The notes beneath the pieces were generated by a model. It was not told the DNA's origin. It made no database searches and was given only the letters and a program-made list of their open reading frames with translations. Positions 48,331 through 53,778 of a DNA stretch of 64,000 bases are shown one piece after another. This DNA comes from Candidatus Kryptoniota bacterium (GTDB taxonomy: Bacteria; Bacteroidota; Ignavibacteria; Kryptoniales; Kryptoniaceae): positions 24,964-88,963 of the forward strand of contig JBEPZK010000002.1 of assembly GCA_041640855.1 (NCBI GenBank), in the 5' to 3' direction. Each line of letters begins with the position of its first letter. Within the stretch, counting starts at the first letter, position 1. Position numbers and translations under genes: made by a program.

Positions 48331-49377
48331 GTGATAATTCTCGGAATAGAGACATCATGCGATGAGACATCTGCAGCTGTGCTTAAAGATGGAGAACTTC
48401 TATCAAGCATAGTTTCAACCCAATACTTTCACTCAAAATACGGCGGGGTTGTTCCTGAACTTGCATCAAGAGCTCATCAGAAGATGATAGTTAAAATAGT
48501 TGACGAAGCATTAAACTCCGCTGGCGTAAAAAAAGAAGAACTTTCTGGAATCGCGGTGACATACGGTCCAGGATTAATTGGCTCGCTTCTTGTCGGGGTT
48601 AGCTTTGCAAAAGCGATGGCTTTCGCTTTGAGGATACCTTTAATCGGCGTAAACCATATCGAGGGGCACATATTTTCAACTTTTCTTTCGGATGAAAAAC
48701 CTGATTTCCCATTTATTTCACTTGTTGTTTCGGGCGGACATACGATGCTTGTACTCGTTGAAGATTTTTTCAAACTTAAACTGCTCGGTCAAACGAGAGA
48801 TGACGCTGTTGGTGAGGCTTTTGATAAAGTCGCAAAACTTTTGGGTTTGGGCTATCCTGGCGGACCGATAATTGATAAACTTGCTCAGGAGGGAAATCCA
48901 GACTTTGTAAAATTTCCTAAGCCAATCCCATCCTCAAAAAATAAGATTTCAAACGATGACGCCCCGAGCGGAAATAAATACGAATTCAGCTTCAGTGGGA
49001 TAAAAACAGCAGTTTTATATTATTTGAAAAAGATCAATTTCCAAAATCTTGAGGAAAGCGAAAAAGTAGAGATAACCAAAAATGTATGTGCAAGTTTTCA
49101 ACGCGTTGTTGTAGATGCACTTGTTGAGCAGACTATACAAGCTGCGAAAGATTATAATATCAAAAATATCTCAATCGCCGGTGGGGTTGCTGCAAATTCA
49201 GAACTTAGAAAAAGCATGATGGAAAAAGCTAAAAGCGAGGGGTTGAAAGTTTATATCCCAAATTTCGCCTATTGCACCGACAACGCGGGTATGATTGCTT
49301 TCGTCGGTTATATCAAATTAAAAAATAACATAAAAAGTGACTTCGGTTTAGCACCAATTCCAAACCTTAAAATTTAG
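48331..49377 (+). CDS. tsaD: tRNA N6-adenosine threonylcarbamoyltransferase
   Basis: GIETSCDET, VPELASRAH, HIEGH, VSGGHT, DDAVGEAFDK, GGVAAN and DNAGMIA. Confidence 0.97.
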   Translation: MIILGIETSCDETSAAVLKDGELLSSIVSTQYFHSKYGGVVPELASRAHQKMIVKIVDEALNSAGVKKEELSGIAVTYGPGLIGSLLVGVSFAKAMAFALRIPLIGVNHIEGHIFSTFLSDEKPDFPFISLVVSGGHTMLVLVEDFFKLKLLGQTRDDAVGEAFDKVAKLLGLGYPGGPIIDKLAQEGNPDFVKFPKPIPSSKNKISNDDAPSGNKYEFSFSGIKTAVLYYLKKINFQNLEESEKVEITKNVCASFQRVVVDALVEQTIQAAKDYNIKNISIAGGVAANSELRKSMMEKAKSEGLKVYIPNFAYCTDNAGMIAFVGYIKLKNNIKSDFGLAPIPNLKI

Positions 49378-49387
49378 ACGAAGTGCT

Positions 49388-50191
49388 ATGGACAGAATCG
49401 AAAAAGTCTTGAATAAAAAACAAAAACTTCTAATCCCTTACATTACGCCGGAATTTCCTGTTCCAGGAGCAACAATCCCAATTCTCGAATCCCTCGTCGA
49501 CGCTGGAAGCGACATAATTGAAATCGGTATTCCATTTAGCGACCCAATCGCAGATGGTCCAACGATTCAACATTCTTCCTACATCGCTTTGAAAAATGGA
49601 GTAAACGTCCAGAAAATTTTTTCGCTCGTCTCAGAATTTAGAAAAAAATTTACAACGCCGATCGTTTTAATGGGCTATTTCAATTCTATATTTAATCATC
49701 GCATTGAAAAATTTGTCCCCGAGGCAATTGAAAGTGGCGTTGATGGCTTAATCGTCCCCGATTTACCAATTGAAGAAGCTGACGAATTAATCGAAATTTC
49801 ACGAAAATATGGGCTGAGCAATATATTTCTCGTTGCTCCAACTTCCGACGACGAAAGAATAAAATTGATATCAAGCAAGTCGACGCATTTTATCTATTGC
49901 GTTTCGGTTACGGGAGTAACAGGTGAAAGGGAAAATTTTGGCGGCGCAGAATTTGAAAATTTTATGAGAAGAGTCAGAGAAAATTCATCAAAACCTTTTG
50001 TGGTTGGGTTTGGAATATCGAAAAGGGAGCATATACTCAAAGCGTGGGAGTGGGCTGATGGAGCTGTGGTTGGTTCAGCTTTGATAAAAAAGTTTTTCAA
50101 CGTTGCAGATATCTCAAAATGTGCTAAAATTGCATACGAATTCATCAAAGAACTTAAAAATGGGCTGGTTCAAGGGCAAAAGCAAATATGA
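49388..50191 (+). CDS. trpA: Tryptophan synthase alpha chain
   Basis: IEIGIPFSDPIADGPTIQ (catalytic Glu and Asp), MGYFN, PDLP, GVTG, VGFGIS and DGAVVGSA. Confidence 0.95.
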   Translation: MDRIEKVLNKKQKLLIPYITPEFPVPGATIPILESLVDAGSDIIEIGIPFSDPIADGPTIQHSSYIALKNGVNVQKIFSLVSEFRKKFTTPIVLMGYFNSIFNHRIEKFVPEAIESGVDGLIVPDLPIEEADELIEISRKYGLSNIFLVAPTSDDERIKLISSKSTHFIYCVSVTGVTGERENFGGAEFENFMRRVRENSSKPFVVGFGISKREHILKAWEWADGAVVGSALIKKFFNVADISKCAKIAYEFIKELKNGLVQGQKQI

Positions 50192-51512
50192 CGAGATCGA
50201 AAAATGGAGGAAAAAAATTGATAAAATTGATATCAAAATCGTTCGACTTTTGAACCGTAGAGCAAGATATGCGGACGAGATTGGAAAAATAAAACAAGAA
50301 CTTAACCTGCCGATTTATTCGCCTGAGAGAGAAAATCAAGTCATCGAAAATGTCACAAAACATAACTTTGGTCCTCTATCGGATATGGCTATAAAAAGAT
50401 TATACGAGCGAATAATCGACGAATCAAGACGACTCGAAAGGGAATCCGCGGAACGTAGGAAGTTATACCAAAACGCAAATTTGAACTCCGCACAATTTTT
50501 AAATTTGCAATCCTTTCTCAAATACTTTGCTTTGCTTTTTCTTCTCGTCTTAATTCAAATCATCAACAAGCAATTTTTTGCTTTTAATTTACCGCCGACG
50601 AAATTTTCTATTGTCGAAATCCCGAAAAATTCAACTTTTGATAAGGCAACGGAAATCTTAAATTCAAATGGATTATTAAAAAATAAGATGCTTTTTTTCT
50701 ATGTTGGGAAATTTCTTGGGCTTGATAAGAAAATAAAAGCAGGGAAATATATCCTCGTCGACAATTTGCCCATGGCAATTGTTATGGATGAAATTGTAAA
50801 CCCGAAATATATTTTGACCGCGACTGTTACAATTCCCGAGGGTTTAACAGCGCGAAGAATTGCTGGTACATTGAAAGCAAGGATTGGAATTGATTCGGCG
50901 AAGTTCATGCAACTTGTAAATGACCCAAAATTCACTCGAAGCCTTGGTATAGATGCTGATGGACTTGAGGGTTATCTTATGCCCGATACTTATGTTTTTA
51001 TCTGGGGAGATGATGAAGAAAGCGTGATAAAAAAGATGGTTCAGGAATTTAAAAAATTTTATTCAGACACATTGAAGGAAAGGGAAAAGTTTATAGGATT
51101 AAACACACATCAAGTTGTGACGCTTGCCTCAATAGTCGAAGGCGAAGCCAAATTCGACGATGAAAAGCCGCGAATCGCAGGTGTATATTTCAATCGCTTG
51201 AAACTTAAAATGCCTCTCGAAGCTGACCCAACGATTCAGTACATAATCCCGGATGGACCGAGAAGACTGCTTTATCAAGATTTGAAAATTCAATCGCCAT
51301 ACAATACATATTTAAACAGGGGACTACCCCCTGGACCTGTGAACAATCCAGGAAGAAGTTCGATACTTGCGGTTTTATACCCAGAAAAACACAAGTTTTT
51401 ATATTTTGTCTCGGACGGCGCTGGAAGACATATCTTTTCGAAGACATATGATGAACACTTAAAGGCTGTGAGAAGATATAGGAAATTAATTTTATCAAAG
51501 AAGCAAGATTAA
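50160..51512 (+). CDS. mltG: Fusion ORF: AroQ-type chorismate mutase, TM helix, endolytic transglycosylase MltG
   Basis: N-terminal WRKKIDKID...LLNRRA...IGKIK...IYSPERE...IIDESRRLE; hydrophobic helix; then AGKY, TIPEG, LEGYLMPDTY, LASIVEGE, LEADPT, SPYNTY and GLPPGP. No in-frame stop between the domains. Confidence 0.85.
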   Translation: MGWFKGKSKYDEIEKWRKKIDKIDIKIVRLLNRRARYADEIGKIKQELNLPIYSPERENQVIENVTKHNFGPLSDMAIKRLYERIIDESRRLERESAERRKLYQNANLNSAQFLNLQSFLKYFALLFLLVLIQIINKQFFAFNLPPTKFSIVEIPKNSTFDKATEILNSNGLLKNKMLFFYVGKFLGLDKKIKAGKYILVDNLPMAIVMDEIVNPKYILTATVTIPEGLTARRIAGTLKARIGIDSAKFMQLVNDPKFTRSLGIDADGLEGYLMPDTYVFIWGDDEESVIKKMVQEFKKFYSDTLKEREKFIGLNTHQVVTLASIVEGEAKFDDEKPRIAGVYFNRLKLKMPLEADPTIQYIIPDGPRRLLYQDLKIQSPYNTYLNRGLPPGPVNNPGRSSILAVLYPEKHKFLYFVSDGAGRHIFSKTYDEHLKAVRRYRKLILSKKQD

Positions 51513-51514
51513 AA

Positions 51515-53179
51515 ATGCATTTAATTCTTGAAACTTTAAAATTTATGCTGAAACTCGAACTTCGATCGAAAAAAGAGGGTAAAATTTCATACGAGAGAAT
51601 TTTGCTAATTTTTGCGATAAACTTTCTCTGGTTCTTGATGTTAAGTTCGGGAATTGCGCTGTCAAAGTCGCAAAGTCAAAGCTTCAGCTCTTTTCTTCTT
51701 GATTTTTCGCTCGTCCTTCTTTCTGTCGAATTTCTACTTCTTATCTTCACGATTTTGGTCGAATTCGATTCCGCAGTTTTAAACGTCGATGAAATAGAAT
51801 TTTTTCTGTCGATTCCGCTTGATTCAACAATATATAGAGTGGGGAAGTACTTGAGTTTTTTGTTATTTGTTTTGTTCTTGAACTTGTCCTACAATCTTTC
51901 GCCAACTTTGGTTTTGGCATTTGCGAATTCATTTGGGTTTTCAACTTCAACTGTTATCATCGCGAGAGTTTGTTTTGCTTATTTTCTCACCTCGACTTTT
52001 TTCGTCGTTTTGATCTCAAACTTTATGCTTTTGATTATGCTTTTGTTGGGACGAAAGTTAAAAATTCAAAAATTAAAAAAATTCATCCTCCCGATCCAGA
52101 TATCCGCAGTTTTTCTGACTTTTTTAATTTATCAGGTCGTTAGCAAGTATTTTTCAGCGCAGGATGAGCATATAAATATTTTCAAACTGGCCGATGAAAA
52201 ACTCTCATCGTTTTCGTTTCTGATGCCACAAATTATTTTCTCCAAAATATTCGTTTGGATTTCTGGAATGGGGTCGGTCAATTTGAATTTCATTGAAATT
52301 TTACCGCTGTTAATGCTCTCATCATTTCTTTTGGTAGCGCCGTTTTATGCTTTAAGGATTGAAAATTTGCAAAATATCTCGACCGTATTTGAACCATCAA
52401 ACGATGTGAAAAATTACCGCTTTATAAAACTTTTGAAAAAAGCAAACCGAGTTTTCTTCAAAGATGATGTCGAACTTGCTTTTTACGAGCTTGTTTACAT
52501 TCACTTGAGAAGGGATAAATCCGTGATGGTTAAAATTTTTTCGACGCTTGCGATATCTGTTGCCATCGCGATTTATGTTCTATTTTTTGAAAAACTTTCA
52601 AATCCTTTAGCCACACCGCTTTCAAAAGGTAATATTTTGATGTTGACCTCGCTTTTCTTCACCGTTACAACTGGGATTACAACAATATCAAGCCATCGAA
52701 ATTACGAGGCGTCGTGGGTTTATCATTTCATCGCAAGAGAAAAAATTTTTGATGCGATAAATGGCGGGTTCAAGGTTCTATGGCATCATATTTTGATACC
52801 GCAAATTGCAATTTTTTCCTTTGTGTATTTGATATCGCTTGATAAGTTTTCTCAAGTTTTCCTTCACATTTTGACGACCGTTGTCTTGTTGAAGATATTT
52901 TTTAATTTAACTGCGTTAATTTCCGCTCGCCTGCCATTTAGTCAGCGAGTTGAAAAGTTGAGTTCTGCCGATAAACTTTTAATTCAAACTTTCCCATTTT
53001 TCGGAGTGATTGCGTCTGTATTTTTTGAAAACGTGTTTTATCAATTGACCACAAACCTTGGAAATTTTCTCTTGCTCGGATTGGTGTTAATTATGGCTTT
53101 TGCTTTTGAAAAATACACTGGCTTACTTTTAAAACGAAAACTTAGAAATGTTTTAACATGGCAAATAAGCGAAGGGTAA
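51515..53179 (+). CDS. Multi-pass membrane protein (ABC-exporter-permease-like, uncertain)
   Basis: About 12 TM segments and a FLSIPL...Y..GKY pattern; no ATPase partner nearby. Confidence 0.5.
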   Translation: MHLILETLKFMLKLELRSKKEGKISYERILLIFAINFLWFLMLSSGIALSKSQSQSFSSFLLDFSLVLLSVEFLLLIFTILVEFDSAVLNVDEIEFFLSIPLDSTIYRVGKYLSFLLFVLFLNLSYNLSPTLVLAFANSFGFSTSTVIIARVCFAYFLTSTFFVVLISNFMLLIMLLLGRKLKIQKLKKFILPIQISAVFLTFLIYQVVSKYFSAQDEHINIFKLADEKLSSFSFLMPQIIFSKIFVWISGMGSVNLNFIEILPLLMLSSFLLVAPFYALRIENLQNISTVFEPSNDVKNYRFIKLLKKANRVFFKDDVELAFYELVYIHLRRDKSVMVKIFSTLAISVAIAIYVLFFEKLSNPLATPLSKGNILMLTSLFFTVTTGITTISSHRNYEASWVYHFIAREKIFDAINGGFKVLWHHILIPQIAIFSFVYLISLDKFSQVFLHILTTVVLLKIFFNLTALISARLPFSQRVEKLSSADKLLIQTFPFFGVIASVFFENVFYQLTTNLGNFLLLGLVLIMAFAFEKYTGLLLKRKLRNVLTWQISEG

Positions 53180-53778
53180 TAATTGGAGTCACGGGCGCAA
53201 GCGGTGGGATTTACGCAATAAGAACGATAAGGGCATTTTTAACTTATGGGTTTGAAATACACCTTATTGTCTCTGATTATGGAAATTTTGTCCTTAAAGA
53301 TGAGTGTGGGATAGACTTAAAAAACAATGAACCAATGAAAGTTTTTAAATCGATGTTTGGAAACGAGGTTGAAAATGGTGAGATAATAAAATATAACTTC
53401 AGAGATTTAACAGCGCGAATATCAAGCGGCTCATTTGAAACAGATGGCATGGTCATAGTCCCATGCTCTGTCAAAACCTTGTCCGGGGTTGCAAATGGGA
53501 TTTCATCTAATTTAATAGAGCGTTCCGCAGATGTTTGTCTTAAAGAAAATCGTTTGCTTGTGGTAGTTTTCAGAGAGACGCCTTTGAATTTAATTCACAT
53601 CCAAAATATGCTAACTTTAGCTCAAGCAGGTGCGAAAATTTTGCCTGCTTCCCCAGCTTTTTATCAAAAACCGAAAACATTTGATGACCTTGCTGATTTC
53701 ATCGCGGGAAAAATTTTATCTCTTTTCAAAGTTGAACATGATCTTTACAAAAAATGGGGAGAAGAAAATGAGAGTTGA
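53158..53778 (+). CDS. ubiX: Flavin prenyltransferase
   Basis: GVTGASG, ISSGSF, PCSVKTL, RETP and PAFY. Confidence 0.92.
   Translation: MANKRRVIIGVTGASGGIYAIRTIRAFLTYGFEIHLIVSDYGNFVLKDECGIDLKNNEPMKVFKSMFGNEVENGEIIKYNFRDLTARISSGSFETDGMVIVPCSVKTLSGVANGISSNLIERSADVCLKENRLLVVVFRETPLNLIHIQNMLTLAQAGAKILPASPAFYQKPKTFDDLADFIAGKILSLFKVEHDLYKKWGEENES

Follow-up and report, generated by a model that had tools for sequence, protein, structure and literature searches.

A chorismate mutase encoded in one reading frame with the endolytic transglycosylase MltG in Kryptonia and related bacteria

MltG, also called YceG, is the glycan-strand terminase of cell-wall synthesis. In the enzymes that combine DAH7PS with a chorismate mutase (CM) of the AroQ type, the AroQ domain senses prephenate and in this way acts as a regulatory domain. 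AroQ mutases function as obligate, intertwined dimers, within which the active sites are formed (1ecm, 2d8d). Several of them are joined to another enzyme, as in the P-protein (CM with prephenate dehydratase, PDT), the T-protein (CM with prephenate dehydrogenase, PDH), DAH7PS-CM (5J6F, 3NVT, 5GMU), and the exported fusion of CM with cyclohexadienyl dehydratase (8CQ3, 8CQ6). The described MltG proteins of E. coli (2R1F), Listeria (Lmo1499, 4IIW), and A. baumannii (8YQ7) consist of an N-terminal transmembrane (TM) anchor, a LysM-like part, and a full YceG domain, and only a few of their residues are cytoplasmic. MltG homologues of E. faecalis and S. pneumoniae have extended, disordered cytoplasmic N-terminal segments, whose phosphorylation by IreK or StkP affects function (PMC12369325). 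Here, we analyzed a stretch of 64,000 nucleotides (hereafter, the window) from a metagenome-assembled genome (MAG) of a Candidatus Kryptoniota bacterium (GCA_041640855.1, contig JBEPZK010000002.1), in which a first-pass annotation had noticed a gene, cm-mltG, that encodes a CM fused in frame to MltG.

The annotation had described an uninterrupted open reading frame (ORF) with an AroQ domain, one TM helix, and a complete MltG with the catalytic Glu in ASIVEGE, and Pfam, NCBIfam, hydropathy, and a structural model all agreed with this layout (Table 1). On the mutase side, the protein scored 88.2 bits against CM_2 (PF01817; cut-off 27), covering positions 1–79 of the 80 in the model. A monomer was modelled with AlphaFold2 from 58 fused homologues, with a mean predicted local distance difference test (pLDDT) of 79. 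The three AroQ helices were modelled at residues 9–48, 55–67, and 75–106 with pLDDT 80–88, and Foldseek superimposed the mutase domain on the T. thermophilus CM 2d8d with a TM score of 0.95 and an rmsd of 0.6 Å. R17, R34, K45, R57, E58, S89, and E93 aligned with R11, R28, K39, R51, E52, S84, and Q88 of E. coli CM, in what we take to be the numbering of that enzyme, which agrees with the 1ecm match. The active-site pattern reported by the annotation (R, R, K, RE, and S...E) is thus retained. R17, R34, K45, R57, E58, and S89 were invariant across 43 fused, 36 split, and 8 unlinked mutase genes, and position 93, the equivalent of E. coli Gln88, was E or Q among homologues, with E in 2d8d. The mutase was also the best conserved part of the protein (mean identity 0.91 in the close group, 0.61 against distant fused homologues) and the tether behind it the least conserved (0.39 and 0.12, respectively), with a tether length that varied from 20 to 51 residues. 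Like the stand-alone AroQ enzymes of T. thermophilus (2D8D/2D8E) and E. coli (1ECM), the fused domain folds into three helices and retains every catalytic Arg, Lys, and Glu residue; it also has the Ser...Glu pair of 2d8d in helix 3. In contrast to them, it would be anchored in the membrane through a C-terminal TM helix and carry a periplasmic enzyme. It resembles the known AroQ fusions in being joined to an adjacently encoded enzyme; however, their partners belong to the same pathway and compartment, whereas here the predicted partner is a cell-wall enzyme across the membrane.

On the MltG side, PF02618 scored 282 bits (cut-off 32.4) over the full model (positions 1–275 of 275), and the NCBIfam model TIGR00247 for MltG scored 236 bits (cut-off 103.4). 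E329 of ASIVEGE, which we take to be the equivalent of E218 in E. coli MltG, and the block NRL...LEADPT were both invariant. E329 aligned with the IIEKE motif of E. coli YceG (2r1f). The ectodomain matched the sequence of 4iiw with an E-value of 2e-43, and also those of 8yq7 and 2r1f; by Foldseek, its model matched 4iiw (E 1.7e-20 over 304 columns), 8yq7 (TMt 0.77), and 2r1f (TMt 0.70). The catalytic Glu in (A)SIVExE followed by NRL...L(E/Q)(A/T)DPT is shared with the known MltG proteins, as are their anchor, LysM-like part, and full YceG domain. The difference lies at the N-terminus, where the fusion has ~115 additional residues, predicted to be cytoplasmic, that constitute a folded enzyme domain. 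The E. faecalis and S. pneumoniae homologues likewise carry an extra cytoplasmic part before the TM helix, which is a precedent for cytoplasmic influence on MltG, but theirs is disordered and non-enzymatic, whereas the fusion has a well-folded AroQ mutase with intact catalytic residues.

Between the two domains, the only Kyte-Doolittle window above 1.6 in the whole protein fell at residues ~117–142, and the TM segment was modelled as a helix at 116–140 with pLDDT 87–89. The pLDDT was mostly 76–94 along the model but below 50 in a loop at 355–386 and at residues 107–114, a short disordered piece between the mutase and the TM helix. The annotation had given the linker as about 25 residues. A linker is indeed present; it is shorter than this if CM helix 3 runs to residue 106, as disorder was modelled at ~107–115 only. 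The N-terminus probably faces the cytoplasm; both the family to which the protein belongs and the basic residues ahead of the helix (RESAERRK) point to this. The topology that the annotation had called coherent, with a membrane-tethered mutase, is in line with these results: the sole AroQ domain of the genome, which has intact catalytic residues, would be held in the cytoplasm by one TM helix.

Next, we surveyed the window's genome, which is 98.9% complete. The fusion was its only match to CM_2 and its only match to YceG, and no match to CM_1, the AroH-type mutase, was found in it. The genome also encodes chorismate synthase, DAHP synthase with a ferredoxin-like regulatory domain, PDT with an ACT domain, and PDH with an ACT domain, the latter two without a mutase domain. 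Since it is the sole mutase in a genome with chorismate synthase, PDT, and PDH, the fused mutase is the predicted branch-point enzyme for Phe and Tyr. Among 61 sampled genomes of the class, only 29 had a PDT homologue (E ≤ 1e-10), which suggests that Phe auxotrophy is widespread in the group or that other enzymes take the place of PDT.

The distribution of the architecture was examined by a search of 5.8 billion proteins, in which the best 120 clusters were classified. The two-domain architecture was present in 69 of these 120, at identities from 91% down to ~40%. The fused clusters came from independent NCBI, JGI, ENA, and Logan assemblies, which had the same frame at 64–91% identity, and the sequence RLERESAE spanning the mutase-MltG junction was conserved in the homologues. 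Related genomes, in which the annotation had proposed to look for the architecture, did contain it. The frame was uninterrupted in 10 of the 12 species genomes of the window's own genus (72–78% identity), the two exceptions being a fragment at a contig end and a heavily fragmented MAG. In the 27 genomes of the sister family, the genes were fused in 16, separated by a single in-frame stop in 4, in different frames in 6, and truncated in 1. Among named genomes, the fusion was present in those of Ca. Kryptonium thompsonii, Ca. Chrysopegis kryptomonas, and Ca. Thermokryptus, together with many MAGs labelled 'Kryptoniota' or 'Bacteroidetes bacterium'. The window thus belongs to Kryptonia, a lineage of geothermal springs. 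A separate group within the Ignavibacteriaceae also carries the fusion. The fused clusters are annotated as 'endolytic transglycosylase MltG', 'UPF0755', or, once, 'chorismate mutase'. We found no paper describing a mutase-MltG protein or a cm-mltG gene pair in the literature searched for chorismate mutase with MltG, YceG, or lytic transglycosylase. The annotation's remark that no such protein had been described therefore holds for that literature but not for sequence collections, where the architecture is common in public MAGs under the names MltG or UPF0755. It appears to be undescribed in the literature and widespread yet unrecognised in public genome annotation.

We then analyzed how the fusion had arisen. 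With our own hidden Markov models for both domains, 80 genome loci with the mutases most similar to that of the window were classified. The genes were fused in 42 loci, and in 30 loci cm lay directly upstream of a separate mltG, in another frame in 26 and in the same frame in 4. The remaining 8 had cm without an adjacent mltG, two of them at contig ends. All 16 loci of Calditrichota were split. A further 20 loci were sampled across the phylum, and cm was directly upstream of mltG in 18; this arrangement was observed in Chlorobia-type genomes, Ignavibacteria, and Calditrichota. Where the genes are split, the stop codon of cm overlapped the start codon of mltG as ATGA, or the ATG followed within ~20 nucleotides, so that a one-base change suffices to fuse or separate the two genes. 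The genes upstream of cm varied by lineage, with trpA in 37 of 79 loci, a tsaD homologue in 25 of 79 (tsaD being the direct upstream neighbor of cm-mltG in Ignavibacteriaceae), a TrpD-type gene (Glycos_transf_3) just upstream in some Calditrichota, including a Caldithrix abyssi MAG (L047, 2781-3842), and an uncharacterised gene in others. Downstream, at least five gene families were found. Through all these changes, the cm-mltG pair stayed constant. As judged from these loci, the fusion grew out of an old, tightly coupled cm-mltG gene pair. In Acidobacteriota and Zixibacteria, trpA was followed by cm without mltG, and in many lineages the mutase gene seems to follow at the end of the trp genes. 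Apparent TrpA-CM fusions in three Acidobacteriota loci (L057, L060, and L062) were rejected as stop-to-stop ORF artefacts of high-GC DNA, as the neighboring trpA and cm do not share a frame.

In a maximum-likelihood tree of MltG domains, the fused genes fell into three clades: a Kryptonium group that includes the window (8 of 8 fused), a 'Kryptoniota' group (17 fused, with 4 split genes nested inside), and an Ignavibacteriaceae group (15 fused, with 3 split genes nested inside). The tree requires at least five changes between the fused and split states, four of which are forced by well-supported branches. The four nested split genes of the 'Kryptoniota' MAGs (L036, L039, L044, and L040) appear to have arisen by secondary fission of fused genes: a frame change to an ATGA-type overlap or short gap is common to three related genomes, and one closed genome of this set has TAA followed immediately by ATG at the junction. 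In many Chlorobia-type and Ignavibacteria genomes, cm and mltG share one frame, interrupted by a single stop at the junction. Programmed read-through of this stop was considered and rejected. A canonical ATG was located 1–20 nucleotides past the stop or overlapping it at all 18 of the junctions examined, and other species carry the two genes in different frames, so read-through is not needed.

Table 1. Features of the cm-mltG locus in the window
Feature	Coordinates	Strand	Details
Fused cm-mltG gene (P0001)	50160..51512	+	ATG 50160, TAA 51510-51512; single open frame, 450 aa
AroQ chorismate mutase domain, residues 16-93	50205..50438	+	PF01817 E 4.1e-25; predicted cytoplasmic
CM helix 3 end and short variable tether, residues 94-116	50439..50507	+	RLERESAE motif, then non-conserved sequence
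Single transmembrane helix, residues ~117-142	50508..50585	+	Hydropathy and model helix 116-140
YceG/MltG ectodomain, residues 152-439	50613..51476	+	PF02618 E 6.2e-84; membrane-proximal alpha/beta LysM-like part and catalytic domain
Catalytic Glu E329 of ASIVEGE	codon GAA 51144-51146	+	Invariant in 58/58 fused homologues
trpA (tryptophan synthase alpha chain)	49388..50191	+	Pfam Trp_syntA E 4e-82; last 32 nt overlap fusion gene start
tsaD (tRNA t6A carbamoyltransferase), upstream neighbor of trpA	48331..49377	+	Pfam TsaD E 5.9e-96
554-aa multi-TM ORF downstream of fusion	51515..53179	+	Begins 2 nt past mltG stop; no Pfam match

The neighborhood of the gene is shown in Table 1. The overlap of its start codon with the end of trpA, reported by the annotation, was confirmed, and the conservation of the N-terminal sequence MGWF(K/R) among close homologues supports this ATG as the start. 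The multi-TM ORF behind the fusion is probably co-transcribed with it. Its family also follows the fusion in 7 loci of the Kryptonium group, and the ORF overlaps the next gene, a flavoprotein at 53158-53778. In the region 48331-50191, trpA has tsaD on one side and the fusion gene on the other, and no further trp gene lies close by. Besides trpA, the neighbors in the window have no relation to the aromatic pathway; among them are genes for a peptidase S58, a two-component system, a phosphate-binding protein, an acyl-CoA dehydrogenase, and MeaB.

The reading we favor, to which we assign a probability of about 0.7, is that cm-mltG is translated as one bifunctional polypeptide, in which a housekeeping mutase is tethered to the membrane on the cytoplasmic side of an ordinary MltG. 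The N-terminal ~106 residues would form a cytoplasmic AroQ mutase, the only one of the cell, followed by a short variable tether, a single TM helix, and, on the outer side, the cell's sole MltG, complete as an endolytic transglycosylase. An ancient, translationally coupled cm-mltG pair would have been joined by the loss of a stop codon or by a one-base frame change. The mutase would supply prephenate to the separately encoded PDT and PDH, and MltG would cut nascent glycan strands, with each domain most likely keeping its ordinary job and neither influencing the other. With the fusion, the output of the two enzymes would be fixed at 1:1 and the mutase would sit on the inner membrane face. Since AroQ mutases work as intertwined dimers, two MltG molecules are probably brought together as well.

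Among the other explanations, an assembly or sequencing artefact in this MAG, either a lost stop or a frame shift, is extremely improbable. Some relatives do carry a stop at the mutase-MltG junction, an observation that the first-pass annotation had named as one that would refute its reading, but the closest relatives do not. The same uninterrupted frame recurs in the independent assemblies described above and in nine other species genomes of the genus, and RLERESAE is conserved across the junction. On this conservation, the ORF is a genuine fusion and not a sequencing artefact. Sequencing error, as suggested by the annotation, is refuted by dozens of independent genomes, and its other suggestion, a lost stop codon, survives in an evolutionary sense only, as the origin of the fusion from an adjacent, overlapping gene pair. 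We also regard it as very unlikely that the fusion exists at the gene level only and yields two proteins, either by internal initiation in the tether or by proteolytic cleavage. The tether of the window gene holds two TTG codons (50481 and 50505, named by the annotation as possible MltG starts) and no ATG or GTG, and an in-frame ATG is present in the tether of 22 of the 43 fused genes. However, sequence inspection revealed no Shine-Dalgarno-like motif at a useful distance before these TTG codons, and a conserved internal MltG start was not found among the fused homologues. Furthermore, ATG, GTG, and TTG are all absent from the stretch that links the mutase to the TM helix in 8 of the 43 fused genes, three of them (L020, L021, and L024) from the closest relatives of the window; these genes could yield the membrane anchor of the sole MltG only within the fusion, so a start at TTG is unlikely as a rule. 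A further proposal, that the mutase mainly serves MltG as a dimerisation or scaffold module and retains catalysis only because it is the sole mutase, seems improbable to us. The dimeric nature of AroQ enzymes would suit it, as would the modelled position of mutase helix 3, only ~10 residues from the TM helix, and the fixation of the fusion in two or three separate lineages. Nevertheless, nothing indicates that MltG needs dimerisation, and many relatives manage without a covalent link, as the uniformly split Calditrichota illustrate.

Several observations weigh against a bifunctional protein with two independent housekeeping activities. The closed 4.6-Mb Ignavibacteriaceae genome G097 keeps the fused mutase and chorismate synthase but has no match to PF00800 (PDT) or PF02153 (PDH), and at its fusion locus (L013; G097:C1:1875523-1879848) cm-mltG is uninterrupted, with all catalytic residues of the mutase intact. 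A housekeeping mutase for Phe and Tyr cannot, therefore, be the whole story everywhere. Two MAGs with the fusion, G476 (L093) and G477 (L079), likewise had no PDT or PDH match, and G473 (L090) had none for PDT only. In the window's genome, pheA (PDT with ACT, 292 residues) overlaps an ftsX homologue by 4 nucleotides on the minus strand of another contig (C8; L003, 347-2097), and the two genes were adjacent in 12 of the 29 PDT loci of the class, which came from the window's genus, its sister family, and two more families, f5 and f61. Here, a second Phe-branch gene is coupled to a gene of cell-wall remodelling. The deep pairing of cm with mltG across Chlorobia-type genomes, Ignavibacteria, Kryptonia, and Calditrichota, while the flanks change, also suggests more than a neutral neighborhood. 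These points would fit a functional coupling, for which the pair and the fusions are kept, in which the mutase domain or its chorismate or prephenate ligand state modulates the activity, localisation, or partner binding of MltG. In E. coli K-12 (NC_000913.3, 1153300-1155134; L118), pabC, encoding aminodeoxychorismate lyase, ends 2 nucleotides before mltG, so that, in a distant phylum, mltG again directly follows a chorismate-branch gene, although PabC is unrelated to AroQ and the pair is unfused. YceG has long been annotated as such a lyase, and the structure 2r1f is titled 'predicted aminodeoxychorismate lyase'. Coupling would also be in keeping with the modulation of E. faecalis MltG through phosphorylation of its cytoplasmic segments by IreK (PMC12369325) and with the AroQ regulatory domains of DAH7PS-CM enzymes (title of PDB 5j6f). 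In DAH7PS-CM, however, the mutase contacts the domain it regulates within one compartment, whereas here a TM helix separates the domains, so that any coupling would have to differ from that type; a single helix and a non-conserved tether would be a poor conduit for allostery across the membrane. The mutase residues are, moreover, equally conserved in fused, split, and unlinked genes. The repeated interconversion of fused and split states shows that the covalent link is not required, which argues against obligate coupling in cis. Overall, we consider coupling unlikely. A broader form of the idea, which we hold to be slightly more doubtful, is that the pair and its repeated fusion mark a real, unrecognised link from the chorismate/prephenate branch point to peptidoglycan remodelling in Bacteroidota, Chlorobi, Ignavibacteria, and Calditrichota. 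AroQ would then be a cytoplasmic metabolite-sensing or partner-docking module of MltG, and the pairs pheA-ftsX and, in E. coli, pabC-mltG would be further expressions of this link; if true, this would explain why G097 retains the fused mutase without PDT and PDH. In S. mutans, chorismate mutase and Phe have been tied to the control of autolysis via ClpXP (PNAS 2025; PMC12700350), a mechanism unrelated to the fusion.

Under the favored reading of a membrane-tethered mutase joined to an ordinary MltG, the fusion offers a natural membrane-anchored AroQ mutase. To our knowledge, the only cytoplasmic handle on MltG is the disordered, phosphorylated tail present in some Firmicutes. In the lineages described here, a folded metabolic enzyme with intact catalytic residues is placed on the predicted cytoplasmic end of MltG, and their relatives have kept cm and mltG translationally coupled over phylum-level distances. 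The two genes also provide a clean case of the repeated fusion and fission of an overlapping gene pair. For databases, the finding calls for a correction: these proteins are labelled as MltG only, and the genomes are consequently scored as having no chorismate mutase. At most, cm-mltG may represent a testable link from aromatic metabolism to cell-wall remodelling.

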